Source of the DNA: an uncultured Ectothiorhodospiraceae bacterium
Lineage (GTDB): Bacteria > Pseudomonadota > Gammaproteobacteria > XJ16 > Halofilaceae
Direction of reading: 5' to 3'
Length of the DNA: 64,000 nucleotides
NCBI GenBank assembly: GCA_964626335.1
Contig: CAZVFN010000001.1
Span: 11,482 to 75,481, forward strand
Shown here: positions 6,105-53,058 of the stretch, piece after piece
Layout of the letters: every line of letters begins with the position of its first letter
Numbering within the stretch: position 1 is the stretch's first letter
Notes under the pieces: generated by a model
Seen by the model: only the letters and a program-made list of their open reading frames with translations
The model's database searches: none
Told to the model about the DNA's origin: nothing
Position numbers and translations under genes: made by a program

Positions 6105-6106
6105 CC

Positions 6107-7081
6107 ATGGAACTCGCCGGGCTGCTCGGCTACTTCTTCTACTTCCTGTCGATGGCCACGATCTACGCCGTGCTCGCGCTCGGCCTGAACATCCAGTGGG
6201 GCTACACCGGCCAGCTCAACATCGGCGTGGCCGCGTTCTTCGCGGTGGGCGCCTACACCAGCGCCATCGCCACCAGCCCGGCCAGCGCGGACCACCTCGG
6301 GGGCTTCGCCCTGCCCTTCCTGGTCGGGCTGGTGCTGGCCATGGTCATCGCCGGCATTGTGGCCCTCGCGGTCGGGCTGATCACCCTCAACCTGCGCTCC
6401 GACTACCTGGCGATCGCCACCATCGGCATCGCCGAGATCGTGCGTCTGTTCCTCAAGAACGAGGCCTGGCTGACCAACGGGGTGCGCGGCATGTCGTCGA
6501 TCCCGGGGCCATTCGAGGGCATCGCGGGCGACGGCGAGGCCATGGCCTACCTGCTGGCGCTGCTGGCCCTGGCGGGGGGGGTGTACTGGACCTGCCAGCG
6601 GCTGTTCCGCTCGCCCTGGGCGCGCGTGCTGCGCGCCATCCGCGCGAACGAGGACGCGGTCCTGGCGGCGGGCAAGAACGTGCTGCGCTTCCGGGTCGAG
6701 GCGTTCGTGCTCGGCTCCATGTTCATGGGCCTCGGTGGGGCTCTCTACGCGCACTTCGTGGGCTTCATCAGCCCGGGTGCGTTCGACCCGATGTTCGCCA
6801 CGTTCGTCGTCTGGGTGATGCTGATCGCCGGCGGGAGCGGCAACAACCGCGGCGCCCTGCTGGGCGCCCTGGTCATCTGGGGGGTGTGGACCATGAGCGA
6901 GTCGATGGTCGGGGGCCTGATCGACATCGGCCTGCTGCCCGACCAGCTCAAGACCCAGGCCTCGGCGCTGCGCATCTTCGTGATCGGGCTGCTGCTGGAG
7001 ATCATCCTGCTGACGCGACCCCAGGGCCTGCTGCCGGAACGCCCGCCGCGGGCCATCGACCTGGCGCGCGAGCGCGACTGA
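6107..7081 (+). CDS. livM: ABC transporter permease (LivM family)
   Basis: In-frame tail of ORF 5621..7081. Start set at ATG 6107 (MELAGLLGYFFYFLS), 3 nt after the livH stop. Polytopic, with LNIQWGYTGQLNIG and SDYLAIATIG motifs. Confidence 0.8.
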   Translation: MELAGLLGYFFYFLSMATIYAVLALGLNIQWGYTGQLNIGVAAFFAVGAYTSAIATSPASADHLGGFALPFLVGLVLAMVIAGIVALAVGLITLNLRSDYLAIATIGIAEIVRLFLKNEAWLTNGVRGMSSIPGPFEGIAGDGEAMAYLLALLALAGGVYWTCQRLFRSPWARVLRAIRANEDAVLAAGKNVLRFRVEAFVLGSMFMGLGGALYAHFVGFISPGAFDPMFATFVVWVMLIAGGSGNNRGALLGALVIWGVWTMSESMVGGLIDIGLLPDQLKTQASALRIFVIGLLLEIILLTRPQGLLPERPPRAIDLARERD

Positions 7082-7217
7082 GCCCGGCCCGGTCGTCGCC
7101 CCGGCACCTCGGCACACCCCGGCCGCCCCGCTCCCCGGGACCACCCGGCGCCTCGCCCCCCGCCCCGGCATGCGAACGCGGCGGCACCTGCACGGCGAGA
7201 CCGCGGGGCGGCGCGGC

Positions 7218-8582
7218 TCAGAAGGCCGGCTGGATCGCCTTCATGCTCGCGCGCACCTTGTCCGGGGCGTGCCCGTACGGCGCGGCGAGCGCGTCGAACA
7301 GCCGATCGAGCTGGTCGTTCGCACGTTGCAGCGCATCGCCCTCGAGTGCGCCCTGCTGCGACAGCGTGTCGACCAGGCCCGCCAGCGCCATGGCGGCCTG
7401 GTCCGACCAGCCGCGGTCGGCGTAGCCGCTGGCCGCGCCGGCCGCCGCGATCCGCCGGGCGATGCCCTCGACCGCGGCCGTGTCGATCGGCGTGCCGGCG
7501 AGGCGCCGCTCCGCCTCGCGCGCCAGCGACAGCAGCCGCTCGGCGGCCTGTTCCACCGCCGGCACGCCGCTGCCCTGCGACCGGTGCAGCGCCTTCAACG
7601 CGTCGATCCAGCGGTTGCGCAGTTCCGGGGCGAGCTCGGCGAGCACATAGCCGAGCATGCGGAAGGTCGCGTCCTCGAACGGCACGGTGCCAGGCCCCTG
7701 GTCGACGATCGGGCGCGCGACCCAGCTCGTGTCGCCCAGTCCGTGGTGACAGCTGCGGCAATCGAAGTAGTACAGCTCGGGGAAGAGCCCGCCCCGCGCC
7801 AGGTCGTCGCGCACCTGCCGGACCTTGGTGCGCGCGGCCACGGCCTGCCCGATCGCCCAGGTCTCGGCGGCGGAGGCCGCCGTCTTGCGTTGCCGATAAT
7901 CGGCGTCGACGCGGTGATGCCGGGGCCGGATGCGGCTGAACGTGTCCGCCTCGAACAACAGCGACGGGTGGCCCGCGGCCATGATCCGGTGCGTCATGGG
8001 CGACGCCGGGTGGCTGTAGTGGCAGGACATGCACAGGCGCGTGCGCTCGACCGGTCGGTCCGTGGGATAGAGGCCATTCGCGACGTTGTCCGCGTGCGTC
8101 ACCCCGCTGTTGGTGTGCGTCTCGATCCAGTCCTCCGCTCCGCCGTGACAGGCCTCGCAGCCGACGCCGTCGCTCACCTGGAAGCGCCTGCCACGGCGCT
8201 CCTCGGGCACGTTGTCGGTGTGGCAATCCAGGCAGGTGTCGGCCGCCGTCGCGGCCCCCAGGCCCAGCCGATCCGCGATCCGCTGCGATTCATCCGTGCG
8301 CAGCACGGCGTAGGCCTTGGAGTGGGGATCCTTGCGGTGCCAGGTCAGGAACTCGTTCTGCAGCACGTCGGTACTGTCGGACGCCCGCCCGGCGCCGTGG
8401 CAGGTGCTGCCGGCGCAGGTGGCCACGCCGAGGTGCTTGCTGTCGCCGAGGCGCGGCAGGGGGGGATCGTCCTGCGCCGGCGCCATGCCGGCCACCCCCA
8501 GCAGCAGGGCCGCGCCGGCAGCTGCGCGCCGGCGCGCGAGCGGATTGCCTCGGTACACGGTCCTGCCGTAGTGTTGCCACAT
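7218..8582 (-). CDS. Secreted multihaem cytochrome c (five sites: one CX4CH and four CXXCH) with a haem-free helical C-terminal half
   Basis: GGAGAAGGAA lies upstream of ATG 8582. Signal-like N-terminus RRRAAAGAALLLGVAGMAPAQ. Haem sites CAGSTCH, CLDCH, CEACH, CMSCH, CRSCH. Divergent from the 8786 gene. Confidence 0.8.
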   Translation of the reverse strand: MWQHYGRTVYRGNPLARRRAAAGAALLLGVAGMAPAQDDPPLPRLGDSKHLGVATCAGSTCHGAGRASDSTDVLQNEFLTWHRKDPHSKAYAVLRTDESQRIADRLGLGAATAADTCLDCHTDNVPEERRGRRFQVSDGVGCEACHGGAEDWIETHTNSGVTHADNVANGLYPTDRPVERTRLCMSCHYSHPASPMTHRIMAAGHPSLLFEADTFSRIRPRHHRVDADYRQRKTAASAAETWAIGQAVAARTKVRQVRDDLARGGLFPELYYFDCRSCHHGLGDTSWVARPIVDQGPGTVPFEDATFRMLGYVLAELAPELRNRWIDALKALHRSQGSGVPAVEQAAERLLSLAREAERRLAGTPIDTAAVEGIARRIAAAGAASGYADRGWSDQAAMALAGLVDTLSQQGALEGDALQRANDQLDRLFDALAAPYGHAPDKVRASMKAIQPAF

Positions 8583-8785
8583 GGTGGGTTCCTTCTCCGG
8601 GGACTTCGCCGCAAGCTAAAGGGTCGGACCGGGTTCGAGCGTAGCGGCTCGCGGCGTTCTTTCCCAGTCCCCGGCGATCACATCGCGCCATGCGCGGTCG
8701 CCGATCGCCGGGTGATGCGGCCCGAACAAGGGGCCCGGCACTCCGCCGCCGCGCGGGTGTACCGGGTCGAGGGGGAACAATCGGC

Positions 8786-11218
8786 ATGGACCGTTACCCG
8801 GTTGCGATCGTGGGATCCGGCCCGGCCGGGCTGAGTGCAGCCTGCCGGGCCGCGGAGCGGGGCGTCGAGCACATCCTGCTCGAGGGTGCCGACCACTACG
8901 CCCACACGATCTACCGCTACCAGAAGGGCAAGCACGTGATGGCGGAGCCCAACGTGCTGCCGCTGCGCGCACCGATCCCGTTCGATGCCGGCCGGCGCGA
9001 GGAGATCCTCGAGGGCTGGGCATCCGGCGCCGGGGAGAAGGGCGCGAATACCCGCTTCAACGCCTCCGTCAAGGGCATCACGGGTGAGCGCGGCGACTTC
9101 CGCCTGACGCTCGCCGACGGCGCGGAGATCGCGGCCGAGCACGTCGTCCTGGCGATCGGCGTCCAGGGCAACCCGCGCACCCTGGGCCGCCCGGGCGAGG
9201 ACCTGCCCTTCGTCCAGTACCAGCTCGACGATCCCGGGGCCTACAGCGACGAGACGATCGTGGTCGTCGGCGCCGGCGATGCGGCGATCGAGAACGCGCT
9301 CGGCCTCGTCGAGCAGAACCGCGTGATCAGCGTCAATACGCGCGACGAGTTCACGCGCGCCAAGGACGCCAACAACCAGGCCATCCTGCAGGCGATCGAG
9401 AGTGAGTCGACGCCCATGGAGTGCTTCTACAACAGCACCGTGGACCGGGTCGATGCCCTCGAGGACGACAGCGGGTTCGCCGGCCAGATCACGCTCGACA
9501 CCGCCGAGGGCAAGGCCGAGATCAAGTGCCACCGGGTGATCGCCCGCATTGGCGCCATCCCTCCGCGCCGGTTCGTCGAGTCCTGCGGCGTCACGTTCCC
9601 CAACGACGACCCGAACTCCGTCCCGGAGGTCTCCAGCCAGTACGAGTCGAATGTCTCCGGGCTCTACATCATCGGCGCCCTCGCCGGCTATCCGCTGATC
9701 AAGCAGGCCATGAACCAGGGCTACGAGGTCGTCGAGTACATCCTCGGCCACGAAGTCGAGCCCGCCGACACGCCGCTGCTGCGCGACAAGTTCGCCGCCA
9801 TACCCGGTGGCGACGACGTCCCCGCGACGCTCGCACTGATCCAGGAGCGCGTGCCGATGCTCGCGCCGATCACGCAGCTGCAGCTGCGGGAGTTCCTGCT
9901 CGACAGCGACATCCACGCCCCCGCCGAGGGTGACACGATCTTCCGGTACAAGGACTACACCAACTCCATCTACTCGATCCTGCAGGGCGAGGTGCACGTC
10001 CACCCGGGCGATCCGAACGACCCGAAGACACCGCGCGCGGCGATCACTCTCACCCAGGGCCAGTTCTTCGGCGAGATGAGCCTGATCTCCGGGCGCCGGC
10101 GCTCGGCGACCGTGACCGCGGGCCGCGACTGCATCGTCATCGAGAGCTCGCGCCGGTCGCTGCTGACGCTGATGTACTCGGTCGAGGGCGTGCGCCGGGT
10201 GGTCGAGGAGTCCTTCCTGCTGCGCGCCATCCAGTCGCAGATCGCGCCCGGCTGCAGCGCCGAGGACCTGGGCGAGCTGGTGCGCACGGCGACGATCGAG
10301 AAGTACGCGGCCGGCGACGAGATCTTCCACGAGGGCGACGCCGGCGACTGCCTGCAGCTCATCCGCCGGGGCTCGGTGACGGTCTCGCGCCAGATCGGTG
10401 GGCGCGAGGTGGTGCTGGCGTACGTCCCGGCGGGCCAGTACGTCGGGGAGATGGCACTGGTCTCGGACGCGCCGCGTACGGCGACCGTGCGCGCCGCCGT
10501 CGCGACGGAGACGGTGCGCCTCGACGGCGACGCCTTCAAGCGCCTGCTCGAGGAGCACCCGGACGTGCGCAAGCGCGTCCAGCAGGTCTACAAGAACCGG
10601 CTGACCAGCGACATGGACCGCGGCCAGCAGCCCGAGGCCGGCGACATCATCTCGTTCCTGGTGGAGCAGGGCCTGGGCGAGGCCACCGACGTGCTGCTGA
10701 TCGACGAGTCGCTGTGCATCCGCTGCGATTACTGCGAGAGCGCCTGCGCCGATACCCACGGCGGTGTGTCGCGGCTCGACCGCGAGGCCGGCCCGACGTT
10801 CGCCCATGTGCACGTCCCGACCTCCTGCCGTCACTGCGAGCACCCGCACTGCATGAAGGACTGCCCGCCCGACGCGATCCACCGCAATCCCAACGGCGAG
10901 GTGTACATCGACGACACCTGCATCGGCTGTGGCAACTGCGAGAAGAACTGCCCCTACGGCGTGATCCAGATGGGCGTGGAGACCCGCCGCGAGCCCAGCC
11001 TGTGGGCGTGGCTGCTGACGGGGCTGGGCCCCGAGCCGGGCTCCGAGCTCAAGCCGAAGAAGAAGGAAAGCGACCAGAAGAAGGCGGTCAAGTGCGATAT
11101 GTGCAAGGATCTGCCGGGCGGCCCCGCCTGCGTGCGCGCCTGCCCGACCGGCGCGGCCCTGCGCATGAGCCCCGAGGCCTTCTTCGAGATGACGGAGAAC
11201 ACGTCGACGCGTGACTAG
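8786..11218 (+). CDS. Cytoplasmic fusion protein: FAD/NAD(P)-binding oxidoreductase, two cyclic-nucleotide-binding domains and a poly-ferredoxin (4Fe-4S) domain
   Basis: ORF 8690..11218. Start set at ATG 8786 (MDRYPVAIVGSGPAGLS), with GAGGGGGA upstream. Dinucleotide folds VAIVGSGPAG and IVVVGAGDAAIENA. cNMP cassettes FFGEMSLISGRRRSATV and YVGEMALVSDAPRTATV. Fe-S motifs CIRCDYCESAC, CRHCEHPHCMKDCP, CIGCGNCEKNCP, CDMCKD...CVRACP. Confidence 0.85.
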   Translation: MDRYPVAIVGSGPAGLSAACRAAERGVEHILLEGADHYAHTIYRYQKGKHVMAEPNVLPLRAPIPFDAGRREEILEGWASGAGEKGANTRFNASVKGITGERGDFRLTLADGAEIAAEHVVLAIGVQGNPRTLGRPGEDLPFVQYQLDDPGAYSDETIVVVGAGDAAIENALGLVEQNRVISVNTRDEFTRAKDANNQAILQAIESESTPMECFYNSTVDRVDALEDDSGFAGQITLDTAEGKAEIKCHRVIARIGAIPPRRFVESCGVTFPNDDPNSVPEVSSQYESNVSGLYIIGALAGYPLIKQAMNQGYEVVEYILGHEVEPADTPLLRDKFAAIPGGDDVPATLALIQERVPMLAPITQLQLREFLLDSDIHAPAEGDTIFRYKDYTNSIYSILQGEVHVHPGDPNDPKTPRAAITLTQGQFFGEMSLISGRRRSATVTAGRDCIVIESSRRSLLTLMYSVEGVRRVVEESFLLRAIQSQIAPGCSAEDLGELVRTATIEKYAAGDEIFHEGDAGDCLQLIRRGSVTVSRQIGGREVVLAYVPAGQYVGEMALVSDAPRTATVRAAVATETVRLDGDAFKRLLEEHPDVRKRVQQVYKNRLTSDMDRGQQPEAGDIISFLVEQGLGEATDVLLIDESLCIRCDYCESACADTHGGVSRLDREAGPTFAHVHVPTSCRHCEHPHCMKDCPPDAIHRNPNGEVYIDDTCIGCGNCEKNCPYGVIQMGVETRREPSLWAWLLTGLGPEPGSELKPKKKESDQKKAVKCDMCKDLPGGPACVRACPTGAALRMSPEAFFEMTENTSTRD

Positions 11219-11232
11219 GAGCCTGTCCGGGG
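11213..11232 (+). repeat. Solo copy of the motif CTAGGAGCCTGTCCGGG, overlapping the TAG stop of the 8786 gene
   Basis: The same 17-mer forms the left terminal repeat of the element at 39501. A diverged copy (CTAGGCGCCTGTCCG) is at 22014. No matching right end is seen downstream of this copy. Confidence 0.5.
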
Positions 11233-11426
11233 ACGGCATTCCAGGGCGCTGCGCGGGGAACCGGGTCCGCGGCGGGCGCGCGCTGCGCCGGGCTGCGCGC
11301 GGGGGAGTCGGATGACAGCGCCGCTGCACGCGTCGTGCGGCGCCGAAAGAGACCGGCCCACCGCGGCCGGCGGAGAACGAGCCGGGCGCAACCCGGCCAG
11401 AGGGAGCACCGGATGACCGCAGGTCC

Positions 11427-12365
11427 ATGCACGCCTCGTTCCTGACCTACGAGCGCTTCCGCCACCTCAAGCTCGCCCTGGCGCTCGCGCTCGCGGCGAT
11501 CGTGGCCTATGCATGGCACGACCCGGTCGGCGAGCCCAACGGCGGCACCTGGCTCGGCTACACCCTGGGGGGACTCGGGGCGGCGCTGATCCTGCTGCTG
11601 CTGTGGTACGGCGTGCGCAAGCGCCGTTTCCGGTCGCGCATGGGCACCGTCCGCGGCTGGCTGTCGGCGCACGTCTACCTCGGGCTCGTGCTGGTGGTGA
11701 TCGCGACCCTGCACACCGGCTTCGAATTCGGCTGGAACATCCACACGCTCGCCTACGCGCTGATGATCGCGGTGATCGTCAGCGGCATCTACGGCGTCTA
11801 CGCCTACCGCCGCTATCCCAACCTGATGACGGGTAACCGCACCGGCGTCGGTCCCCAGGCGATGCTCGACGAGATCGGCTCGCTCGAGCAGCAGGCCGTC
11901 GAGCTCGCCGACAGCATCGACGACCCGACCCACCAGGTCGTACTGCGCTCGATCCGCAACAACACCATCGGCGGCGGCGTGCGCGACCAGCTGCGCGGCG
12001 GACGCCCGAAGCAGGCGCGCCAGGAGGAAGACCGCGCGGAGGAGTTCCTCGAACAGAAGAACAGGACGCTGGTCGCCGACCTGGAGAAGATCAAGGCGCA
12101 GGAAGCCGACCGCATCATGCGGGCCGAGTCGACCATGCAGTTCGTCGCCGGCCATCTGGCGGCGGCCGAGCCGGGCCAGCAGGTGGAGCGCATCCGCCGC
12201 CTCATGGATCTCCTGTCGCGGCGCCGCGCCCTGGTGCGCCGGCTCAACCAGGACATCCAGCACCGCGCGCTGCTCCAGATCTGGCTGTACCTGCACGTGC
12301 CGCTTTCGCTCGGGCTGCTGGCAGCCCTCGTGGCGCACGTCGTCGCCGTGTTCACCTACTGGTAG
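11427..12365 (+). CDS. Five-TM membrane protein with two H-x13-H helices (candidate di-haem b transmembrane electron carrier) and a long charged coiled-coil insert
   Basis: TM3 reads SAH-VYLGLVLVVIATL-H and the last TM reads LH-VPLSLGLLAALVA-H, each with exactly 13 residues between the histidines. About 150 aa of charged helical sequence separates TM4 from TM5. Weak SD. The stop is 6 nt before the next gene. Confidence 0.6.
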   Translation: MHASFLTYERFRHLKLALALALAAIVAYAWHDPVGEPNGGTWLGYTLGGLGAALILLLLWYGVRKRRFRSRMGTVRGWLSAHVYLGLVLVVIATLHTGFEFGWNIHTLAYALMIAVIVSGIYGVYAYRRYPNLMTGNRTGVGPQAMLDEIGSLEQQAVELADSIDDPTHQVVLRSIRNNTIGGGVRDQLRGGRPKQARQEEDRAEEFLEQKNRTLVADLEKIKAQEADRIMRAESTMQFVAGHLAAAEPGQQVERIRRLMDLLSRRRALVRRLNQDIQHRALLQIWLYLHVPLSLGLLAALVAHVVAVFTYW

Positions 12366-12371
12366 GCCGCC

Positions 12372-14132
12372 ATGCGCGTTCTCGTTCGCCACATTACGCG
12401 CAGGTCGCAGACCGGCCTCGGCCACACCGACAAGACGGTCGCGGGCGACAGCCTCACCATTGGTCGCGGCGCGGACGCGGATGTCTTCCTCTCCGACCTG
12501 CACGTCGCCCTGCACCACGCCGTGCTGCGGCGTGTGTCGAGCGGCAGGTTCAGCGTTCAGGCGCGCACGCCGAGTGGCATCAAGATCAATGGCCGCACGC
12601 TGCAGACCGGCATCGTGCGCGCCGGCGACCGCATCGGCGTCGGCCTCAGCACCCTGCGCCTCGAGCGCGGCGACCAGGAGCACGACGTCGTCCTCGAGGT
12701 CGACGAGGCGCGGACCCGTGGCGGCGAAAAGGCGGACTCCGGGCCGACGACGCTGCGCGCGGCCGGTCTCGGCCGCCGGCGCTGGGCCTGGGCCGCCTTC
12801 CTGGTGGTGCTGGCGATCGGCCTGGGCCTGCCGCTGGCCGAGATATTCGGCGAGCGCGATGGCCTCGCCCTCGACGGCGGCAGCGCCGACGCTGCGGCGC
12901 GCGACGGCGGCGGGATCACGCGACACGTCGACTGGCTGCTGGCGGGCAGCGACCGCATCTGGGAAACCGGGCCGATGAGCAAGCCCCACCGCTCCTTCGG
13001 CGCCGATTGCGGCCAGTGCCACCGGCAGCCGTTCCAGCGCGTGAGCGACGCTGCCTGCCTCGACTGCCACGAGAACCAGCCGCACCACGCCGACGACACC
13101 GGCCTGATGCGGAGCGCCGGGCTCTCCGCTCGGCGCTGCGCGAGCTGCCACGTCGAGCACAGCGGCACCGAGGCCCTGCGCGCCGCCGACGCCGACATCT
13201 GCTCCGACTGCCACTCGGCGCCCGAGAGCAACATGCCGGGCAGCGACCTGCAGGCGGTTTCCGGCTTCGCCGGCGACCGGCACCCGCAGTTCCGCGTGCG
13301 CCTGGTGTCGTTCAACGAGGGGGGCGAGCCCGCCTGGAAGCGCGTGCCCATGGACGGGCCCGTGAGCGAGCAAAGCGGGCTCGCATTCCCCCACGACGCC
13401 CATCTGGCCGCGGACGGCGTAGAGGGTCCACAGGGCAAGGAACAGCTCGCGTGCGGCGACTGCCATCGCCCCGGGCCGACGGGCGTGACGATGCAGCCGG
13501 TGCGTTTCGAGCGCGACTGCCAGCGCTGCCACCAGCTGAACTTCGAGCCCGAGGACCCGGACCGCCAGCTACCCCACGGCCGCCCCGGGCTGGTGGTGTC
13601 GATGCTCGAGGAGTACTACTCGCGGGTCGCGCTCGCGGGCGGCTTCGACCGCGCGGACGCCGAGGTCGACCCCCCGGACGTGGTCGAGCGCGAGCGCACC
13701 GCCTCGAGCGAGCTCGAGGAGGGCGGGCGGCGTGCCGCGCTCGCCTGGGCGCGGGAACAGGCCGGCGTGGTCGCCAGCGAGATGTTCGACTACCGCGCCT
13801 GCAGCACGTGCCACCAGGTCACGCGCACGCCCGATGACCCGGCCGGCTGGCGGGTGCACCCCGTGGCGCTGACGCAGCAGTGGTTCCCGCAGGCGGATTT
13901 CACGCACGCGCGCCACGAGCAGATGGCCTGCAACGACTGCCACGAGGCCGGCGGCTCCGAGGCGGCGAGCGACGTGCTGATGCCCGGGATCGCGACCTGC
14001 CAGGAATGCCACGGCGGTTCCGGGGCGAGCGACCGGATCGCTTCCGGCTGCGTCGATTGCCACGGCTTCCACACGGCGACCGATCTGCGGATGGGGGCGA
14101 ACGATGAGGGGATGGCCCATGCGCAGCGCTAG
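12372..14132 (+). CDS. FHA domain - single TM - periplasmic decahaem cytochrome c fusion
   Basis: N-terminal FHA-like sequence (LTIGRGADADVFLSDLHVALHHAVL...IKINGRTL...GDRIGVG). TM helix WAWAAFLVVLAIGLGLPLA. Ten CXXCH sites follow: CGQCH, CLDCH, CASCH, CSDCH, CGDCH, CQRCH, CSTCH, CNDCH, CQECH, CVDCH. Confidence 0.8.
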   Translation: MRVLVRHITRRSQTGLGHTDKTVAGDSLTIGRGADADVFLSDLHVALHHAVLRRVSSGRFSVQARTPSGIKINGRTLQTGIVRAGDRIGVGLSTLRLERGDQEHDVVLEVDEARTRGGEKADSGPTTLRAAGLGRRRWAWAAFLVVLAIGLGLPLAEIFGERDGLALDGGSADAAARDGGGITRHVDWLLAGSDRIWETGPMSKPHRSFGADCGQCHRQPFQRVSDAACLDCHENQPHHADDTGLMRSAGLSARRCASCHVEHSGTEALRAADADICSDCHSAPESNMPGSDLQAVSGFAGDRHPQFRVRLVSFNEGGEPAWKRVPMDGPVSEQSGLAFPHDAHLAADGVEGPQGKEQLACGDCHRPGPTGVTMQPVRFERDCQRCHQLNFEPEDPDRQLPHGRPGLVVSMLEEYYSRVALAGGFDRADAEVDPPDVVERERTASSELEEGGRRAALAWAREQAGVVASEMFDYRACSTCHQVTRTPDDPAGWRVHPVALTQQWFPQADFTHARHEQMACNDCHEAGGSEAASDVLMPGIATCQECHGGSGASDRIASGCVDCHGFHTATDLRMGANDEGMAHAQR

Positions 14133-16182: not shown

Positions 16183-18034
16183 GCGCACAGTCATCGGCCT
16201 TGGCCTCGCCGCCGTCGTCCTCGCGCCGTTCGCCGCGGCCGCGGACGACGTCCGGCGCCGCCCGGGCAGCGACCGCGACCGGGTCATCGAGCGCGAGATC
16301 CCGGGCGAGCGCGACCGCGAGCGCCCGGGCAGCGATCGCCCCCGGGAGCGCGACAAGGTCGAGCAATCCCCCGATCGAGCGCAGCAGCCGCGCGAGCAGC
16401 CCGACCCCAACAGGGCCGCCGGGATCGGGCGCGTCGAGCCGGCTTCGGCGCCGGACGAGCCCGGGCGCTTGACCCTGCCCGTGCCCGATCGGTGGCGTAT
16501 CGTCAATTCGCTCGGGCTGATCGATCAGCGCTGGTGGGACCCCTACGATCAGAACACGTACAAGGCGGACAAGCCGATCCACGACGACTGGTTCCTCAAC
16601 GTCGACTTCACCTCGGACACCGTCGTCGAGCCCAGGCAGTTCCCCGTCCCCGTCTCCCCGCAGGGCACGGCACGCAGCAACGAGCTCGACCTGGTCGGCA
16701 ACGGCGAGCAGATGGTCTACGCCCAGACCTTCATCGCCGGTCTCGTCTACTACAAGGGCAACACCGTATTCAAGCCGCCCGACTGGGAATACCGGCTGAC
16801 GCTGGCCGGCCAGTACAACCACGTCGAGTCCGAGCAGGCGCGCCTGCTGCGGGCGGACCCGGACCGCGGTACCGACCGCTCCGACCAGCACCTCGGCGTC
16901 CAGGAGCTGTTCGTCGACAAGCACCTCAGAGATGTCTCGCCGCGCTATGACTTCGACTCGGTGCGCTTCGGCATCCAGCCGTTCAACGCCGATTTCCGCG
17001 GCTTCCTGTTCCAGGACGAGCCCTTCGGGGTACGCCTGTTCGGCACGCGCGACAACAACATCTTCCAGTACAACCTGGCCTGGTTCCGCCGCATCGAGAA
17101 GGACACCAACAGCGGCCTCAACGACCTCGCCGAGGGCCTGCGCGACGACGACGTCTTCGTCGCCAACCTGTTCTGGCAGGACTTCCCCGTGCTCGGCTTC
17201 GACAGCCAGGCCACGATCCTGCACAACCGCAATGAGGAAGGCGACGAGAGCGCGCACTTCAACCAGAACAACTTCATCGAGCGCCCGGCCTCCATCGGCC
17301 TGGAGAAGCCGCGCAACTACGACGTGACGTATGTCGGCCTCTCGGGCGACGGCCACTTCGGACGCACGAACTTCACCGGATCGGTGTATTACGCCCATGG
17401 CGAGCAGGACCGCGGCGTCTTCGTCGAGGAGCCCACCGACATCCGCGCCGGCTTCGCCGCCGGCGAGCTCTCCTGGGACTTCGACTGGACGCGCCTGCGC
17501 GTCTCCGGCCTCTATGCCAGCGGCGACGACGACCCGTTCGACGACGTCTCCAACGGCTTCGACGCCGTGTTCGAGAACCCGCTGTTCGCGGGCGCCGACA
17601 CCAGCTTCTGGATCCGCCAGCCCGTGCCGCTGATCGGCGGCGGTCGGGTCGCGCTGTCCGGCCGCAACGGGATACTCAACTCGCTGCGCAGCTCCAAGGA
17701 GGAAGGCCAGTCCAACTTCGACAATCCGGGCACCGTCCTGCTCGGCATCGGCACCGACCACGACGTCACGCCGCAGCTGCGTGTCTCGACCAACGTCAAC
17801 CAGCTGTGGTTCGACACGACCGAGACCGTGGAGGTCGCGCGCCAGCAGACGAACGTCGATGACGAGATCGGCACCGACATATCGGTCTCGGCAATCTACC
17901 GGCCGCTGTTCACGCAGAACATCGTCTTCCGCGGGTCGGCCGCCGTTCTCGAGCCGGGTGATGGCTACGAGCAACTGTTTGGCACCGACGACGAGGCCTA
18001 CTCCGTGCTCTTCAACCTGGTGTTGCGGTACTGA
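16154..18034 (+). CDS. Outer-membrane beta-barrel protein (porin-like) with an N-terminal Arg/Asp/Glu/Pro-rich repeat
   Basis: Signal peptide KRTVIGLGLAAVVLAPFAAAA. Repeat RPGSDRDR...RPGSDRPRERD. Long run of alternating beta-strand-like sequence. The C-terminus, ...VLFNLVLRY, ends in an aromatic residue. Overlaps the upstream gene by 29 nt and the downstream gene by 1 nt. Confidence 0.65.
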   Translation: MSRPSVKASKRTVIGLGLAAVVLAPFAAAADDVRRRPGSDRDRVIEREIPGERDRERPGSDRPRERDKVEQSPDRAQQPREQPDPNRAAGIGRVEPASAPDEPGRLTLPVPDRWRIVNSLGLIDQRWWDPYDQNTYKADKPIHDDWFLNVDFTSDTVVEPRQFPVPVSPQGTARSNELDLVGNGEQMVYAQTFIAGLVYYKGNTVFKPPDWEYRLTLAGQYNHVESEQARLLRADPDRGTDRSDQHLGVQELFVDKHLRDVSPRYDFDSVRFGIQPFNADFRGFLFQDEPFGVRLFGTRDNNIFQYNLAWFRRIEKDTNSGLNDLAEGLRDDDVFVANLFWQDFPVLGFDSQATILHNRNEEGDESAHFNQNNFIERPASIGLEKPRNYDVTYVGLSGDGHFGRTNFTGSVYYAHGEQDRGVFVEEPTDIRAGFAAGELSWDFDWTRLRVSGLYASGDDDPFDDVSNGFDAVFENPLFAGADTSFWIRQPVPLIGGGRVALSGRNGILNSLRSSKEEGQSNFDNPGTVLLGIGTDHDVTPQLRVSTNVNQLWFDTTETVEVARQQTNVDDEIGTDISVSAIYRPLFTQNIVFRGSAAVLEPGDGYEQLFGTDDEAYSVLFNLVLRY

Positions 18035-21000
18035 TGACAGCGCAAGCGAACCGAAACACGCCGATGAGCGAACCCGTCGCCCCCGGGCGCACGCCGAATC
18101 GCGCCCGGGCGTGGCTCCACGCCGGTGCCCTCGTGCTCGCGGCGACGCTGGCCTGGGGACCCGGCGACCGCGCGCAGGCGGCCTCCGCGCTCGGCGAGCC
18201 GCAGGACGTCGATTACGACCCCGCCCCGCCCGCGCCGAAGAACCAGCTGCCGGGCCAGGCCGAGGACAAGAGCGACGGCTGCCAGTCGTGCCACACCGAG
18301 ACCGACCAGAAGGACATGCACGACAACCCGGCGGTCGTTCTCGGCTGTACCGACTGCCACGGCGGCGATCACGACGTCATGCGCCCGGCCGACAGCGAAC
18401 AGGGCGATCCCGCCTACCAGAACGCGATGAAGGAAGCGCACGTCAAGCCGCTGTACCCGGGGGCGTGGAATTGGCCGAACAGCGCGACGCCGAAACGCAC
18501 GTACACGCTGCTGAACGAGGAATCGCCGGAATTCGTCCGCTTCGTGAACCCGGGCGACTACCGCGTCGCGGAGAAGGCGTGCGGCAACTGCCACGGCGAC
18601 ATCGTCGCCGCCGCCCAGCGCAGCCTGATGGCGACCTCGGCGATGTTCTGGGGCGGGGCGGCGTACAACAACGGCATCCTGCCCAACAAGCGCTACATCC
18701 TGGGCGAGGCCTACACCGACGAGGGCAAGCCCGCCAGGATCGAGAACCCGGTCGAGGTCACGGAGCCGATGAAGCGCGCCGGTGTCCGCCCCGAGCTGTG
18801 GCCCCTGCCCGCCTGGGAGACCGTGCCGCCGGCCGACGTCTTCCGCGTGTTCGAGCGTGGCGGGCGCAACAAGGAGAACCTGTTCCCCGAGACCGGCCTG
18901 CCGAACCCCGAATTCGACATCCAGGTGCTCGAGGAGCCGGGCCGCCCGGACATCCGCCAGTCGAACCGGGGCCCGGGCACCGGGCAGCGGATCGCCGTGC
19001 CGGTGCTCAACATGACCAAGACGCGGCTGAACGACCCGACCATGTGGTTCATGGGCACCAACGACAACCCGGGCGACTTCCGCTCCTCGGGCTGCTCGTC
19101 GTGCCACGTCGTCTACGCCAACGACCGCAAGGAAAAGTCCGCCGGCCAGTACGCCGAGCACGGCCACTGGGGCAAGAGCATCACCGCGGACCCGACCATC
19201 CCGAAGGATGAGAAGGGCCACCCCCTCGAACACAAGTTCACCGAGCAGATCCCGACCAGCCAGTGCATGATCTGCCACATGCACCAGCCGAATTCGTTCG
19301 TGAACTCGTTCCTCGGCTACACCATGTGGGACTACGAGTCCGATGCACCGCGCATGTGGCCCGAGGAGCAGCAATACCCGAGCTCCGAGGAGCAGCGCCG
19401 GATCAACGCCCGCAACCCCGAGGGCGCGGCCGTGCGCGGCAAGTGGGGCGACGTCGACTTCCTCTCCGGCGTATCGGAGCTGAACGACCAAATGGAGCAC
19501 ACGCAGTTCGCCGACTACCACGGCCACGGCTGGAACTTCCGCGCCGTGTTCAAGAAAGACCGCGAGGGCAAGCTGCTCGACGCGAAGGGCGACGTGGTGT
19601 CCCACGACGACCCGGAGAAGTTCGACAAGGCCGTGCACATGTCGTCGATCCACGCCGACAAGGGCATGCACTGCGTCGACTGCCACTACAGCCAGGACAC
19701 GCACGGCAACGGCCACATCTACGGTGAGGTCGCGCAGGCCATCGAGATCGAGTGCTCCGACTGCCACGGCACTGCCGAGCGCTACCCGGACCTGCTGACC
19801 AGCGGCCCGGCCGCGCCGCCGGGCGGGCGCGACATGTCGACGATGCGCACGCCCGACGGTCGCCAGCGCTTCGTCTGGCGTAACGGCGACCTGTACCAGC
19901 GCTCGCAAATGGACCCCGAAAAGGAGTGGCAGGTCAGCCTGGTCAAGGACACGGTGACGCAGGGCAGCGGCAGCTACAACGAGCGCGCCGCACGCTCCAA
20001 GCTGATGTCGTCGGACGAGCACAAGCAGGACTGGGGCCGAGACGTGGCGAAGGAGAACCGCGCGCACAAGGAATCGGAGATGATGTGCACCACCTGCCAC
20101 ACGTCCTGGACGACGAGCTGCGCGGGCTGCCATCTGCCGATCGAGGCGAACTGGAAGACCAAGCGCCATCACTACGAAGGCGGGGCCACGCGCAACTTCG
20201 CCACCTACAACCCCCAGGTGGTGCGCGACCAGATGTTCCAGCTGGGCCTGCACGGGCCCGCCAAGGGCAACCGCGTCGCACCGGTGCGCTCGTCCTCTGC
20301 GCTGGTGCTGTCGTCGCGCGACGCCGAGCGCGGGCTGATCTACACCCAGCAGCCGCCGATCTCGTCGGCCGGTTTCTCGTCGCAGGCGTTCGCGCCTCAC
20401 TTCGCGCACACCGTGCGCAAGACCGAGACGAAGTCGTGCGAGGACTGCCATCTCTCCGAGGAAGGCGACAACAACGCGATCATGTCGCAGTTGTTGCTCC
20501 AGGGGACCGATTTCGTCGATTTCGTCGGCTACAACGCCTGGGTCGGCGAGGCCGGCGGCCTGTCCGCCGTGCGCGTCAGCGAGTGGGAGGAGCCGCAGGC
20601 CGTGATCGGCAGCTACCTCCACGAGTACGCCTACCCCGACTGGTATGCGCAGCACAACAAGCGCGATCGCCAGCTGGACCAGGCCTATGACCACGGTGCC
20701 GGCGGCGAGGTCGGCTGCCTGCAACTGCGCGGCGAGTATGTCTACGCCGCCGAAGGGCCCGGGGGCTTCCAGGTCTACGACGCACAGGCGATCGGCAACA
20801 AGAACTTCTCGCAGCGCCTGATCACGCAGCCGTTCTCGCCGCTGGGCCACGACACCCAGGTCGACACGAGGAACGCGACCTGCGTCGCCCTGCCGACCAC
20901 CCAGCCGATCCACCCGGACCGCAATCAGGGCGAGCTGATGCGCGAGACCAACATGGAGCAGCCGTTCCACCCGGTCTACGACTACGCGGGCATCACCGAC

Positions 21001-21855
21001 AGCGAGGAGGGGCTGATCCTCGTCGACGTCAACACGCTCGCCGACGGCGAGCCGCGCAACAACTTCCTCGAGCGCGCGGTGACGTTCAACCCGAACGGCG
21101 TGCTCGACGGTGCGCGCGACATCACGTTCGGTGGGCACTTTGCCTACGTGGCCACCGATGACGAGCTCGTGGTGGTCGACCTGGATCAGCCCGGGCAGCC
21201 GCGGATCGCCGAGCGCATCCGCCTGCAGGATCCGCGTGCGAGTTTCGTCCAGTTCCGCTACCTGTTCGTCACCGATGCCACGGGTCTGCGGGTGATCGAC
21301 ATCACCCATCCGCAGGAGGCCGAGCTGGTTGCGGGCGCACGGGTCGAGCTGGCCGATGCGCAGGGCCTGCACGTGGCACGCACCTACGCCTACATCGCCA
21401 ACGGCGGGCAGGGTCTCGCGATCGTCGACGTGACGCGGCCGGAGGCGCCGGAGCTCTTCCAGCGCTTCGACGGCGGCGGGCGGATCGGCGACGCCCGCGA
21501 CGTCGTCGCCGGGGCCAGCTACGCCTCGGTGTTCGCCTACGTCGCGGACGGGCGCAACGGCCTGCAGGTCGTGCAGCTCACCTCGCCGGAGCGCACGCCC
21601 GGTTTCTACGGCTACAGTCCGCCGCCCGACCCGAAGTGGATCGCCGGTTACCCGACCGAGCGGCCGGCGCTGGCGCTGTCCGAGCCGCTGGAGCGCGACC
21701 GGGCAGTCGACGAGACCGGCCACCAGATCGCCGTGTTCGGGCGCATCGGCTCGCGACCGTTTGACTGGGAAGAGATGAAGCAGCTCTACCTCGACGACCA
21801 GGGCAAACCCTGGTACGTCAGCGATCCCCCGGGGGCCACCGCGGCCGGCAACTAG
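18034..21855 (+). CDS. Large secreted decahaem cytochrome c fused to a C-terminal LVIVD-repeat beta-propeller
   Basis: Signal-like ARAWLHAGALVLAATLAWGPGDRAQAAS. Ten CXXCH sites are spread over about 850 aa: CQSCH, CTDCH, CGNCH, CSSCH, CMICH, CVDCH, CSDCH, CTTCH, CAGCH, CEDCH. LVIVD-type repeats follow: GLILVDV, ELVVVDL, GLRVIDI, GLAIVDV, GLQVVQL. The ATG overlaps the upstream TGA. Confidence 0.8.
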   Translation: MTAQANRNTPMSEPVAPGRTPNRARAWLHAGALVLAATLAWGPGDRAQAASALGEPQDVDYDPAPPAPKNQLPGQAEDKSDGCQSCHTETDQKDMHDNPAVVLGCTDCHGGDHDVMRPADSEQGDPAYQNAMKEAHVKPLYPGAWNWPNSATPKRTYTLLNEESPEFVRFVNPGDYRVAEKACGNCHGDIVAAAQRSLMATSAMFWGGAAYNNGILPNKRYILGEAYTDEGKPARIENPVEVTEPMKRAGVRPELWPLPAWETVPPADVFRVFERGGRNKENLFPETGLPNPEFDIQVLEEPGRPDIRQSNRGPGTGQRIAVPVLNMTKTRLNDPTMWFMGTNDNPGDFRSSGCSSCHVVYANDRKEKSAGQYAEHGHWGKSITADPTIPKDEKGHPLEHKFTEQIPTSQCMICHMHQPNSFVNSFLGYTMWDYESDAPRMWPEEQQYPSSEEQRRINARNPEGAAVRGKWGDVDFLSGVSELNDQMEHTQFADYHGHGWNFRAVFKKDREGKLLDAKGDVVSHDDPEKFDKAVHMSSIHADKGMHCVDCHYSQDTHGNGHIYGEVAQAIEIECSDCHGTAERYPDLLTSGPAAPPGGRDMSTMRTPDGRQRFVWRNGDLYQRSQMDPEKEWQVSLVKDTVTQGSGSYNERAARSKLMSSDEHKQDWGRDVAKENRAHKESEMMCTTCHTSWTTSCAGCHLPIEANWKTKRHHYEGGATRNFATYNPQVVRDQMFQLGLHGPAKGNRVAPVRSSSALVLSSRDAERGLIYTQQPPISSAGFSSQAFAPHFAHTVRKTETKSCEDCHLSEEGDNNAIMSQLLLQGTDFVDFVGYNAWVGEAGGLSAVRVSEWEEPQAVIGSYLHEYAYPDWYAQHNKRDRQLDQAYDHGAGGEVGCLQLRGEYVYAAEGPGGFQVYDAQAIGNKNFSQRLITQPFSPLGHDTQVDTRNATCVALPTTQPIHPDRNQGELMRETNMEQPFHPVYDYAGITDSEEGLILVDVNTLADGEPRNNFLERAVTFNPNGVLDGARDITFGGHFAYVATDDELVVVDLDQPGQPRIAERIRLQDPRASFVQFRYLFVTDATGLRVIDITHPQEAELVAGARVELADAQGLHVARTYAYIANGGQGLAIVDVTRPEAPELFQRFDGGGRIGDARDVVAGASYASVFAYVADGRNGLQVVQLTSPERTPGFYGYSPPPDPKWIAGYPTERPALALSEPLERDRAVDETGHQIAVFGRIGSRPFDWEEMKQLYLDDQGKPWYVSDPPGATAAGN

Positions 21856-22017: not shown

Positions 22018-22146
22018 GCGCCTGTCCGAGAGATTCGCGCCGTCGCGAGCGCGTGGGACCAGCGAGCAGGTTTTGGCGATCGTGAAACGAGCATGGTGGT
22101 TCCCATGTGCGTCGAGCGCTCGCCGAAAGATGCTGCTGGGGCACGC
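22012..22146 (+). mobile_element. Diverged, right-end-degraded copy of MITE-like element B (paralogue of 39501..39677)
   Basis: By eye it aligns with 39505..39636 at roughly four-fifths identity (CTAGGCGCCTGTCCG...GCCGTCGCGAGCGCGTGG...GATCGTGAAACGAGCATGG...GTCGAGCGCTC...GATGCTGCTGGGGCACG). Element A sits exactly at its left CTAG. Confidence 0.5.
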
Positions 22147-22385
22147 GCGCACCGAGGCCACGGCTTCTGGGAGCGGCGCCCGGGCAAGCCCTGGTCCATG
22201 CCCTGTCGCCCGGTTTCGCCTGCCGAGCACCCGTGCCAGGCGCGCGGCCGGCGCCGGATCGCCCAATACGGGCAAGCCGCACAACGCCGCGAGTCGACCG
22301 GGCACGCGCACGGCTCGACAGTCCCTCCAACGACTGGCGTGCCCGCGCGCTTGGCCGCGACGTGCGTGTGCTATCCTGCCGCGCC

Positions 22386-23063: not shown

Positions 23064-23065
23064 CC

Positions 23066-53057: not shown

Positions 53058-53058
53058 C

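Follow-up and report, generated by a model that had tools for sequence, protein, structure and literature searches.

The window (the whole 64,000-nt stretch of DNA analysed) contains a real seven-gene cluster, g1–g7 (Table 1), which is held together in hundreds of bacterial species and whose most likely role is to draw electrons from NAD(P)H in the cytoplasm and pass them through the inner membrane to an uncharacterized ten-haem periplasmic protein, g7. All seven ORFs proposed in the initial annotation are present at the positions given there, with GC3 values of 0.92–0.95, i.e. the codon bias of real genes, and its haem counts and domain assignments were reproduced by CxxCH counting, Pfam profile matches, and readable motifs. 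The junction pattern claimed earlier follows from the coordinates: g3 and g4 are separated by 6 nt, and overlaps of 14 (29 if an alternative start is used), 29, and 1 nt are found at g4/g5, g5/g6, and g6/g7, respectively. A start of g2 at 8786, rather than at 8690 where the ORF opens, fits the onset of ortholog conservation near residue 39.

Table 1. Genes of the cluster, with positions in the window and predicted products.
Gene	Position	Strand	Predicted product
g1	7218..8582	-	Periplasmic c554-like cytochrome, 4 CxxCH and 1 CxxxxCH; helical, haem-free C-terminal part
g2	8786..11218	+	Cytoplasmic FAD and NAD(P) flavoprotein; two cNMP-binding domains; four-cluster [4Fe-4S] ferredoxin domain
g3	11427..12365	+	Five-helix inner-membrane protein, predicted di-haem b
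g4	12372..14132	+	Cytoplasmic FHA-like domain, one TM helix (141-159), periplasmic decahaem c domain (10 CxxCH)
g5	14119..16182	+	Periplasmic protein with two GlcG/HbpS (DUF336)-like halves; lipoprotein (LAAC) here
g6	16154..18034	+	Outer-membrane 18-strand beta-barrel; disordered charged N-terminal extension with conserved RRRPG motif
g7	18034..21855	+	Sec-exported 1273-aa protein; decahaem domain (10 CxxCH, ~ residues 60-830), C-terminal LVIVD beta-propeller

Related loci were sampled by fetching 80 loci, drawn from at least 499 species hits and distributed in Gamma-, Alpha-, and Betaproteobacteria. The order g2-g3-g4-g5-g6-g7 is intact in essentially all of those with enough flank. Conservation of gene order over 80 loci and three proteobacterial classes is more than chance and supports the earlier proposal of a single functional unit. 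An Acidobacteria genome and at least two more distant ones also carry the core of the cluster, which comprises the porin, g7, the c554-like cytochrome (g1), a protein with cNMP and Fer4 domains, the H-x13-H membrane protein, a multihaem protein, and a flavoprotein linked to FHA. In distant phyla, the g6 homolog is 28% identical and its gene lies directly upstream of that of the g7 homolog. All haem motifs are invariant among orthologs of the cytochromes (4/4 CxxCH in 46 orthologs of g1, and 10/10 in 56 of g4 and 72 of g7). The divergent orientation of g1 noted in the initial annotation is found here and in the closest relative, where g1 lies upstream, but in most genomes it follows g7 immediately and in the same orientation. 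Both g1 and g7, which had been called secreted, have a Sec signal peptide, and nothing beyond this is readable; the periplasm is taken as the default location of g1, g5, and g7.

The flavoprotein part of g2 is YpdA/TrxR-like, without the CxxC motif. Pfam matches of g2 comprise Pyr_redox_2/3, two cNMP_binding domains, and Fer4 families, and its PDB matches are Bdr/YpdA, PKA regulatory subunits, and HycB. The sequence also shows four Cys-cluster motifs. Across 44 orthologs, there is little or no variation in the two GxGxxG dinucleotide motifs or in the G-E...R cassette residues of either cNMP domain. These motifs indicate that g2 binds FAD and NAD(P)(H) and bears a chain of four [4Fe-4S] clusters.

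In g3, the motifs W78-x3-H82-x13-H96, S119-G-x-x-G123, and W286-x3-H290-x13-H304 were identified; the four His residues are invariant in 48 proteobacterial orthologs and three distant-phylum homologs, and the charge distribution puts one His pair near each membrane face. The twofold W-x3-H-x13-H motif is a well-supported signature of two putative b-haems. A cytochrome-b561 match in Pfam is sub-threshold, the PDB search by sequence detected neither a solved homolog of g3 nor evidence of a quinone site, and no significant match to NOX, MsrQ, or NarI was obtained in Pfam or PDB; the di-haem assignment thus rests on the motifs. The g4 protein matches the FHA, Yop-YscD_cpl, and c7/c3 c-type haem families of Pfam. 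Its canonical pThr-binding Ser is replaced by Ala in most sampled orthologs, so that an FHA regulatory step is uncertain, while the Arg is retained in 27/50, and the Arenicella version has no FHA domain. Matches of g1 to cytochrome c554 were found in Pfam (Cytochrome_C554, E 3.5e-9) and PDB (E 0.004).

The most conserved protein of the set is g7 (conservation score 0.63 vs. 0.32 for g4 and 0.36 for g1). LVIVD repeats were identified by Pfam, and the fusion of haem and LVIVD domains is retained in relatives 41-50% identical to g7. No solved homolog of g7 was found. In the g7 model (pLDDT 51 overall), the propeller is confident but the haem part is not, and no catalytic site or open haem coordination was identifiable in the latter; the conserved His residues are sufficient for bis-His ligation of all ten haems. 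The g6 protein has no Pfam match. Its AlphaFold2 model, of moderate confidence (pLDDT 68), has 18 strands, and the best Foldseek match is AlgE (E 2e-17, TM 0.65), followed by OprD/Occ porins, which are likewise 18-strand barrels; Alginate_exp was weakly matched by 4/28 g6 homologs. Sequence identity between g6 and AlgE/OprD is, however, 12-14%, no alginate synthesis or export genes lie near g6, and the g6-type barrel is always encoded beside cytochrome genes, even in other phyla.

We give an about even chance to the cluster being a regulated, NOX-like electron-export module that feeds a periplasmic decahaem/beta-propeller oxidoreductase and has a dedicated solute channel. In such a module, g3 would bind two b-haems through its invariant His pairs, one close to either side of the membrane; g4 is anchored beside g3, its ten c-haems lying on the periplasmic side, and electrons would pass from NAD(P)H via FAD, the Fe-S clusters, the two b-haems, and the c-haems of g4, and possibly via g1, to g7, bypassing the quinone pool as in NADPH oxidases and Fre-MsrQ. 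Outward flow is energetically downhill when the NAD(P)H couple lies at the cytoplasmic end, and the membrane potential assists it. Because the flow spends both reductant and membrane potential, it would be gated; candidate gates are the binding of cyclic nucleotides by g2 and contacts made through FHA, and in many genomes genes for a PP2C phosphatase and a double-FHA protein are also present, following the cluster in ~27/80 loci. The g7 protein would act as the terminal periplasmic oxidoreductase on a small solute, which may cross the outer membrane via the AlgE/OprD-like channel g6, the g6 gene probably being translationally coupled to g7. In the sibling PCC4/ptd cluster, an enzyme-type cytochrome (NrfA-family pentahaem) stands in the place of g7, which is consistent with g7 being an enzyme.

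With NADPH oxidase/ferric reductase domain systems, including the two-component Fre-MsrQ, the cluster shares NAD(P)H, flavin, two predicted transmembrane b-haems with His pairs 13 residues apart on two helices, and presumably delivery outside the cytoplasmic membrane without quinones. The FNR-type flavoprotein (FAD_binding_6/NAD_binding_1) of the acidobacterial version and the faint Ferric_reduct match of the membrane protein in another distant locus point to a split NOX architecture. Unlike those systems, g3 has five helices rather than six, an Fe-S domain with four clusters stands in between, the flavoprotein of the present cluster is of the TrxR/YpdA kind, and electrons would go to a multihaem c chain rather than to O2, Fe(III), or MsrP.

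On the favoured reading, the seven genes constitute one redox machine, a variant of the predicted PCC4/Ptd type, which the module matches. PCC4 was predicted by He et al. (2017, PMC5566968) as a set of a membrane protein, an Fe-S/cNMP protein, a flavoprotein, a decahaem, a tetrahaem, and a porin; the gene set was later named ptdABCDEFG (bioRxiv 10.1101/2023.11.21.568154), and its function was left unknown in both studies. By the published descriptions rather than direct sequence comparison, both types contain a five-helix inner-membrane protein in which helix 4 bears SGxxG and W-x3-H-x13-H occurs twice (the PCC3/PCC4 signature, PMC5566968), preceded by an Fe-S (PF13247) protein with cNMP domains, together with an FAD/NAD(P) oxidoreductase, a periplasmic decahaem, a protein with four CxxCH motifs, and a porin, and the hosts are chiefly marine or saline Proteobacteria. 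Unlike PCC4/ptd, the present cluster lacks the NrfA-family pentahaem with a beta-sandwich (PtdA) and has the LVIVD-propeller decahaem instead, adds the double-GlcG protein, fuses the flavoprotein and the cNMP/Fe-S protein into one polypeptide, and gives its decahaem an FHA domain and a membrane anchor. A fusion of this last kind was noted in Ferrigenium, with its function left unknown (bioRxiv 10.64898/2026.01.22.701106). There, as described, a trio of genes in Ferrigenium straubiae specifies an inner-membrane module built like the present one: an FHA-multihaem cytochrome (a cytoplasmic FHA domain fused to a periplasmic, single-helix-anchored cytochrome), a five-helix membrane protein, and a [4Fe-4S] protein; that cytochrome has nine haems vs. 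ten in g4, and the trio adjoins nirK, unlike the present cluster, and was reported without a porin, LVIVD cytochrome, or GlcG protein. The statement in the initial annotation that no characterized complex has this composition therefore holds, the nearest matches being simpler and prediction-only, but 'undescribed' applies in part: the inner-membrane module type had been predicted, and what appears to be undescribed so far is the LVIVD decahaem and the double-GlcG protein, for neither of which a published description was found.

The initial annotation regarded the cluster as a wire across the whole envelope. Invariant cofactor motifs strongly support its cytoplasm-to-periplasm part, while an exit through g6 to extracellular acceptors such as minerals or electrodes, by way of a cytochrome (g7, g1, or the g4 tip) that is inserted in the barrel or caps it, is unlikely. 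A porin encoded with several multihaem cytochromes resembles the gene content of porin-cytochrome clusters, PCC4 and ptd were read in this way by their describers, and, as in MtrCAB/PioAB, decahaem cytochrome genes stand beside an outer-membrane barrel gene, that of g7 being always immediately downstream of the porin gene in proteobacterial and distant loci (with the 1-nt overlap here). LVIVD propellers are also said to be surface-associated, and the N-terminus of one distant homolog (P0259) is lipobox-like. Cyc2 is an example of a small barrel with room for a single haem domain. However, g6 contains no cysteine and no haem motif, in agreement with the earlier remark that it lacks CxxC, and its 18 strands (vs. 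26) and the failure of all 28 homologs to match MtrB_PioB led us to reject g6 as an MtrB-type conduit barrel; the true MtrB in the window scores 504 bits against the MtrB/PioB model, to which g6 gives no score. The cluster is distinct from MtrCAB, as had been claimed. The Sec signal of g7 is ordinary and, as in most orthologs, without a lipobox, matches to MtrC domains are below threshold, and conservation is far higher in g7 than in the wire-like g4. Residues per haem number 127 in g7 and 96 in the surface cytochrome MtrC of the window, a density that does not separate the two. In addition, the periplasmic decahaem of the present cluster is anchored to the inner membrane, its input would come from NAD(P)H and Fe-S rather than from quinol via CymA, and a complete MtrCAB with a CymA-like protein is already encoded in the same genome.

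Tmc/Hmc-type complexes of sulfate reducers carry electrons inward, and their architecture, in which a periplasmic multihaem c, a membrane di-haem b, and a cytoplasmic Fe-S protein join the periplasmic and cytoplasmic redox pools, matches that of the present cluster. If the cluster operated in their manner or as He et al. modelled PCC4, g7 would oxidize a donor in the periplasm or outside the cell (Fe(II), Mn(II), or an S or N compound) and electrons would pass via g1 and g4 to g3 and on to the quinone pool or cytoplasmic NAD(P)+/Fe-S acceptors. This direction is somewhat less probable still than extracellular export. The weak TmcA and QrcA matches of g4, the resemblance of g1 to cytochrome c554, which accepts electrons from an oxidizing enzyme, the occurrence of PCC4 in iron oxidizers, and an uptake-type NiFe hydrogenase in the genome of the window favour it. 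Reduction of NAD(P)+ from the periplasm, however, opposes the membrane potential and so needs a very low-potential donor, an NAD(P)-site flavoprotein is retained in every version of the cluster, including the FNR-type one, and the hosts are mostly aerobic heterotrophs (e.g. Halieaceae, Nevskiaceae, Arenicella, and Steroidobacteraceae). The cluster also has no HdrD-type CCG domain or NrfD-like subunit, unlike Tmc/Hmc, in addition to its NAD(P)-binding flavoprotein and cNMP/FHA domains, and the TmcA and QrcA matches are very weak.

A redox-sensing device, in which the haem chain, instead of carrying metabolic flux, would inform the cytoplasm of the redox state of the periplasm by way of FHA, cNMP, and PP2C partners, is improbable: signalling domains are unusually dense (two cNMP domains on g2, FHA on g4, the PP2C and double-FHA genes, and, in distant phyla, Ser/Thr kinases and FHA-fused flavoproteins encoded close to the cluster), and the EfgA and HbpS families, relatives of g5, are sensors, but 25 c-haems, two b-haems, four Fe-S clusters, and a dedicated porin are excessive for a sensor, to our knowledge no sensor using anywhere near so many cofactors and a dedicated porin, the FHA domain, whose pThr-binding residues are poorly retained, is missing from the Arenicella version, and g7 shows enzyme-like conservation.

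Within the favoured export module, g5 may be a periplasmic accessory that binds a ligand or haem. It matches HbpS-like proteins in Pfam (E 1.7e-24) and EfgA/GlcG in PDB (E 7e-7), and contains an internal duplication (E 2e-5). The protein is absent from the distant-phylum versions of the cluster; its orthologs carry a lipobox in Gammaproteobacteria and a plain signal peptide, as soluble periplasmic proteins, in Alphaproteobacteria.

All seven open reading frames of the initial annotation were recovered by translation at the coordinates claimed for them, and their GC3 values (0.92-0.95) are those of genuine genes in this window of ~70% GC. Scans with Pfam and NCBIfam also confirmed the domain content. 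For g2, a flavoprotein carrying cNMP-binding and [4Fe-4S] domains, conservation among orthologs starts near residue 39, which supports the originally proposed start at 8786 over the ORF start at 8690. The coordinates further bear out the tight gene junctions, i.e. a 6-nt gap followed by overlaps of 14 or 29, 29, and 1 nt. Every other junction being tight, g2 is separated from g3, a five-helix membrane protein gene, by a GC-rich spacer of 208 nt (window 11219-11426); a promoter and terminator scan of the whole cluster, including this gap, detected no site above chance.

Coordinates and motif content of cluster genes and of neighbouring ORFs
Feature	Position	Strand	Content
g1 (c554-like cytochrome)	7218-8582	minus	four CxxCH and one CxxxxCH (motif count on translation)
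g4 (FHA-decahaem cytochrome)	12372-14132		ten CxxCH (motif count on translation)
g7 (LVIVD decahaem cytochrome)	18034-21855		ten CxxCH (motif count); LVIVD repeats (Pfam)
ORF	6196-7425	plus	no Pfam match, no confident gene call
ORF	6020-7171	minus	no Pfam match, no confident gene call

Relatives of g7, the 1273-aa decahaem protein, were scanned in one genome per species, which yielded at least 499 stretches; 80 loci were fetched and compared with the seven proteins by tblastn. In essentially all loci with enough upstream sequence, g2, g3, g4, g5 (a double GlcG/HbpS protein), g6 (the outer-membrane barrel or porin), and g7 are present in the same order and orientation, and the neighbourhood from g2 to g7 is thus syntenic across the Gamma-, Alpha-, and Betaproteobacteria. 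The hosts include Halofilum, Wenzhouxiangella, Halieaceae, Solimonas/Nevskiaceae, Arenicella, Steroidobacteraceae, Woeseiaceae, Rhodospirillaceae, and Geminicoccaceae. In most loci the g1 homolog comes next after g7, in the orientation of g7; exceptionally, g1 is divergent and upstream in the window and in its closest relative (L002). Genes for a PP2C phosphatase and a double-FHA protein extend the cluster in about 27 of the 80 loci (e.g. L048:15024-17126 and L010:15213-16451), and a homolog of neither gene was found in the window. A conserved ORF of ~148 aa without a Pfam match lies between the g4 and g5 homologs in 12 loci (L027:5559-6005 and 11 others), all of them alphaproteobacterial.

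More distant loci were reached through a 41% identical g7 relative, obtained in a search of 50%-identity representatives, and two of the homologs of that relative. The core of the cluster recurs in these loci, i.e. in one Acidobacteria genome and two further distant genomes, and consists of a porin (28% identity to g6, E 1e-49), a g7-like protein, a c554-like cytochrome, a cNMP and Fer4 protein, a membrane protein of ~285-297 aa, and a multihaem cytochrome; none of the three loci contains g5. Two of them continue the core with FHA proteins and an FHA-fused flavoprotein, of the FNR type in one and of the Pyr_redox_2 plus Fer2 type in the other, and Ser/Thr kinase genes are located nearby. The synteny and the distant-phylum core therefore indicate that the seven-gene unit is old, modular, and under strong selection. 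The g7 family contains more than 8000 sequence clusters with matches in at least 499 species, and all copies are annotated as 'hypothetical'; g7 identity between Alpha- and Gammaproteobacteria is ~62-66%. The system is found in several phyla and in hundreds of species, most of them aerobic and from marine, saline, or soil habitats, including the cultured Chromatocurvus halotolerans DSM 23344, Kineobactrum salinum, Halofilum ochraceum, and isolates of Solimonas and Arenicella.

The g2 protein combines a pyridine-nucleotide flavoprotein (Pyr_redox_2/3), two cNMP_binding domains, and a polyferredoxin of the DmsB/HycB type (four Cys-cluster motifs; PF13247, E 1e-10). Among 44 orthologs, both GxGxxG dinucleotide motifs are invariant, and in each of the two cyclic-nucleotide cassettes the Gly-Glu...Arg residues are fully or almost fully conserved; no redox-active CxxC was found in the flavoprotein part of the ortholog alignment. 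The solved relatives of g2 are YpdA/Bdr, regulatory subunits of PKA, and the four-cluster ferredoxin HycB. The functions fused in the window are encoded by separate flavoprotein and cNMP/Fe-S protein genes in distant relatives. The g3 protein carries the motifs W78-x3-H82-x13-H96, S119-G-x-x-G123, and W286-x3-H290-x13-H304. No substitution of its four histidines (H82, H96, H290, and H304) was seen in 48 proteobacterial orthologs or in three distant homologs; W286, G120, and G123 are invariant across phyla, and S119 and W78 are conserved in at least 90%. From the positive-inside charges, one histidine of each pair (H82, H290) is predicted to lie close to the cytoplasmic side of the membrane and its partner (H96, H304) close to the periplasmic side, a placement that would have the geometry of a transmembrane relay of two b-haems. 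In its motifs and their conservation, g3 thus appears to resemble the Ferric reductase domain (NOX/FRE/MsrQ), in which His pairs about 13 residues apart on two transmembrane helices ligate two b-haems. The only Pfam match of g3 is a sub-threshold one to a cytochrome-b561 family (Ni_hydr_CYTB, 23.5 bits against a cutoff of 30.1). The Pfam scan gave no PF01794 match, one distant homolog gave a faint Ferric_reduct match, and a profile search of the PDB with g3 returned no match to NOX, MsrQ, NarI, or FdnI.

The g4 protein has an N-terminal FHA domain, a single transmembrane helix (141-159), and c7/c3-type haem modules identified by Pfam; its ten haem motifs are invariant among orthologs. Since g4 has no signal peptide, the FHA-like domain is predicted to be cytoplasmic and the ten haem motifs periplasmic. 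Among the phosphothreonine-site residues of the FHA domain, Gly is invariant, Arg and His are present in 27 of 50 and 35 of 49 orthologs, respectively, and Asn-Gly is mostly kept. The phosphothreonine-binding Ser is replaced by Ala in most sampled orthologs, and the Arenicella protein lacks the domain altogether. Given the Ser replacement, the partial conservation of Arg, and this loss, the domain may serve for docking and not for the classical reading of phosphothreonine. Even so, the linked PP2C and FHA genes speak for an involvement of phospho-signalling.

The initial annotation had set the cluster apart from the canonical MtrCAB set of the same window, and this distinction holds for the barrel, the MtrA-like, and the MtrC-like component alike. 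MtrCAB is characterized by a 26-strand PF11854 barrel that sheathes a decahaem cytochrome, a soluble MtrA-like periplasmic decahaem protein with ~30-35 residues per haem, and a surface lipoprotein with MtrC/OmcA domains. Unlike MtrA, g4 contains an FHA domain and a membrane anchor; it has 59 residues per haem, compared with 32.5 in the MtrA of the window, and reaches an E value of only 0.0055 against chain A of PDB entry 6r2q, which we take to be the MtrA chain. Instead of the lipobox of a surface lipoprotein, g7 and most of its orthologs have an ordinary Sec signal and an AxA-type cleavage site, and g7 scores 18.6 bits on the MtrC/OmcA-type domain PF22113, below the cutoff of 30. No Pfam family matched g6, and none of 28 g6 homologs matched PF11854 (MtrB_PioB), to which the true MtrB of the window (42036-44195) scores 504 bits; four of the 28 matched Alginate_exp weakly.

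AlphaFold2 modelled g6 (pLDDT 68) as a barrel of 18 strands, preceded at the N-terminus by a charged extension that is disordered. In a Foldseek search of the PDB with this model, AlgE ranked first (E 2e-17, TM 0.65), followed by 18-strand OprD/Occ channels and general porins, and MtrB was absent from the top 50 matches. An alginate-type exporter was rejected on gene context: the barrel gene is surrounded by cytochrome genes in all 80 loci, as well as in distant phyla, and not by an operon for polysaccharide synthesis and export. With an identity to the AlgE/OprD fold matches of 12-14%, the likeness to AlgE is one of fold only. The extension, residues ~30-110 (window 16240-16480), directly follows the signal peptide, is rich in Arg, Asp, Glu, and Pro, and contains an RRRPG motif that is nearly invariant in proteobacterial homologs.

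These data bear on the initial proposal of a wire across the whole envelope. A real, conserved, and uncharacterized electron-transfer unit is present, and the part of it that leads from the cytoplasm to the periplasm stands on firm ground; the outer-membrane part of the wire found no support. A true trans-outer-membrane conduit appears unlikely here: as modelled, a barrel of 18-strand size should be unable to sheathe a decahaem cytochrome in the manner of MtrB, and g6 contains neither a cysteine nor a haem motif. A Cyc2-like plug could conceivably hold a single haem inside g6.

The g7 protein is the most conserved of those compared, with a mean identity to the window sequence of 0.63 (g1, 0.36; g4, 0.32). 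It contains long invariant non-haem motifs throughout its length, and the haem and propeller fusion is kept at 41-50% identity in other phyla. This pattern is typical of what would be expected of an enzyme, not of a generic wire, and the protein looks like a new class of multihaem enzyme. Haem density was dropped as a test of enzyme versus wire, since the MtrC of the window has a similar ratio. Sequence and profile searches of the PDB yielded no solved homolog, only insignificant haem-motif matches (NrfA, E 0.68; ActA-like, E 0.29), and no enzyme family could be assigned from them. AlphaFold2, run with a 31-sequence alignment, did not model the haem domain, and a Foldseek search with the propeller retrieved generic propellers only, from which no active site could be proposed. 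Two candidate identities were rejected: ExtM, to which the NCBIfam similarity is distant (67 bits against a cutoff of 800), and a CuZ-like or other metal site in the propeller, where conserved His residues are too few. The HbpS/GlcG-like g5 is internally duplicated and has an LAAC lipobox; it is a lipoprotein in Gammaproteobacteria and has a plain signal peptide in Alphaproteobacteria, a signal pattern that would fit a periplasmic location.

Part of this arrangement has been predicted before. PCC4 was described as a porin, three periplasmic multihaem cytochromes (4, 5, and 10 haems), and a five-helix protein of the inner membrane that bears SGxxG on helix 4 and W-x3-H-x13-H twice, with a PF13247 Fe-S gene also located upstream in a marine subgroup (He et al. 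2017, PMC5566968). A cluster from Alphaproteobacteria of oxygen-deficient zones, named ptdABCDEFG and described as 'completely unknown' in function (bioRxiv 10.1101/2023.11.21.568154), is evidently the same, and a trio of FHA-multihaem, five-helix, and [4Fe-4S] proteins has been noted in Ferrigenium (bioRxiv 10.64898/2026.01.22.701106). The membrane-protein signature is carried exactly by g3. The inner-membrane module, the tetrahaem-type cytochrome, and the porin are common to these systems and the cluster of the window, Ptd being compared by its description. The cNMP and PF13247 protein upstream of the membrane protein and the FAD/NAD(P) oxidoreductase are also present here, fused in g2, and the 10-haem and four-CxxCH proteins have their counterparts in g4 and g1, whereas the set of 4, 5, and 10 haems does not recur. 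The NrfA-family pentahaem protein with a beta-sandwich (PtdA) is absent, and the ten-haem LVIVD protein g7 is found instead; g5 is an addition, as is the flavoprotein fusion. Our literature search found no published mention of the LVIVD decahaem protein and, on multihaem proteins of Halieaceae and NOX-like multihaem systems, nothing beyond the ptd preprint. The module, initially seen as a candidate undescribed one, is therefore not wholly undescribed: the kind it belongs to is known from predictions, and within it the LVIVD decahaem protein and the double GlcG/HbpS protein g5 appear to be new.

The best-supported electron path runs from g2 through g3 and g4 to g7, and the conserved motifs point to a capacity of each part to bind its cofactors. 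Electrons would pass from NAD(P)H to FAD and the four [4Fe-4S] clusters of g2, to the two b-haems of g3, to the ten c-haems of g4, and then to g7, possibly via the c554-like g1; it is the order and direction of transfer that we infer. Outward flow is favoured because no version of the cluster lacks an NAD(P)-binding flavoprotein and because in one distant version an FNR-type module, together with the membrane protein (for which a second distant locus gives the faint Ferric_reduct match), yields a split NADPH-oxidase layout. For electrons of the NAD(P)H couple, export is thermodynamically downhill and helped by the membrane potential, whereas the reverse needs a donor of very low potential. Inward electron uptake, of the kind proposed for PCC4 or seen in Tmc/Hmc complexes, is improbable, slightly more so than a true outer-membrane conduit. 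The NrfA-family pentahaem protein that takes the place of g7 in the sibling cluster suggests, by analogy, that g7 may be a terminal enzyme of the reductase type. The invariable adjacency of the porin and g7 genes, with their 1-nt overlap, suggests that the two proteins are a stoichiometric pair, in which g6 would be a channel for the substrate (or product) of g7. The cNMP, FHA, and PP2C controls make sense because export of NAD(P)H electrons is costly, and that the assembly bearing them is mainly a sensory device is very improbable.

A bolder reading, less likely than not, is that the cluster encodes a multi-subunit bacterial analogue of NADPH oxidase, i.e. a system that exports NAD(P)H electrons independently of quinones, is gated by cyclic nucleotides and phosphorylation, and powers a new class of periplasmic enzyme, a decahaem-LVIVD propeller protein, with its own outer-membrane channel. 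If this is right, many aerobic heterotrophs spend cytoplasmic NAD(P)H on periplasmic chemistry, in a regulated manner and without the quinone pool, and the machinery could serve NAD(P)H-dependent reduction of extracytoplasmic oxidants, e.g. O2 to superoxide, metal or halogen oxyanions, or nitrogen oxides. Such an exporter would represent a new respiratory or defensive principle in bacteria, with multihaem enzymes of a new class at its end. A habit would also be corrected by it: PCC4/ptd-type clusters have been taken as extracellular conduits, and hence as markers of iron cycling, merely from a porin beside cytochromes, and the porin here looks like a solute channel. The proposal matters because the family is very widespread and hypothetical in all its copies, because g7 looks like a new enzyme class, and because cultured hosts make direct tests possible.

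Several further features were observed in the window. The ccm operon appears to be split: ccmA and ccmB directly follow g7 (22107-23734), and ccmC, ccmF, a ccmG-like redoxin gene, and ccmH/I resume ~26 kb further on (49590-55807). The stretch between the two halves (24269-49476) contains a NiFe hydrogenase with Isp-type partners, hyp maturation genes, a complete mtrCAB, and a NapC/CymA-like tetrahaem gene, and resembles an inserted island. Long ORFs are present on both strands of the stretch that separates a LivH-type permease gene from the 3' end of g1 (6105-7217). On the minus strand, 1820-3589 encodes a 589-aa fusion of a NuoE-like thioredoxin-type [2Fe-2S] module, a NuoF-like FMN/NADH module, and SLBB and 4Fe-4S domains, which is a diaphorase-type unit near the cluster.
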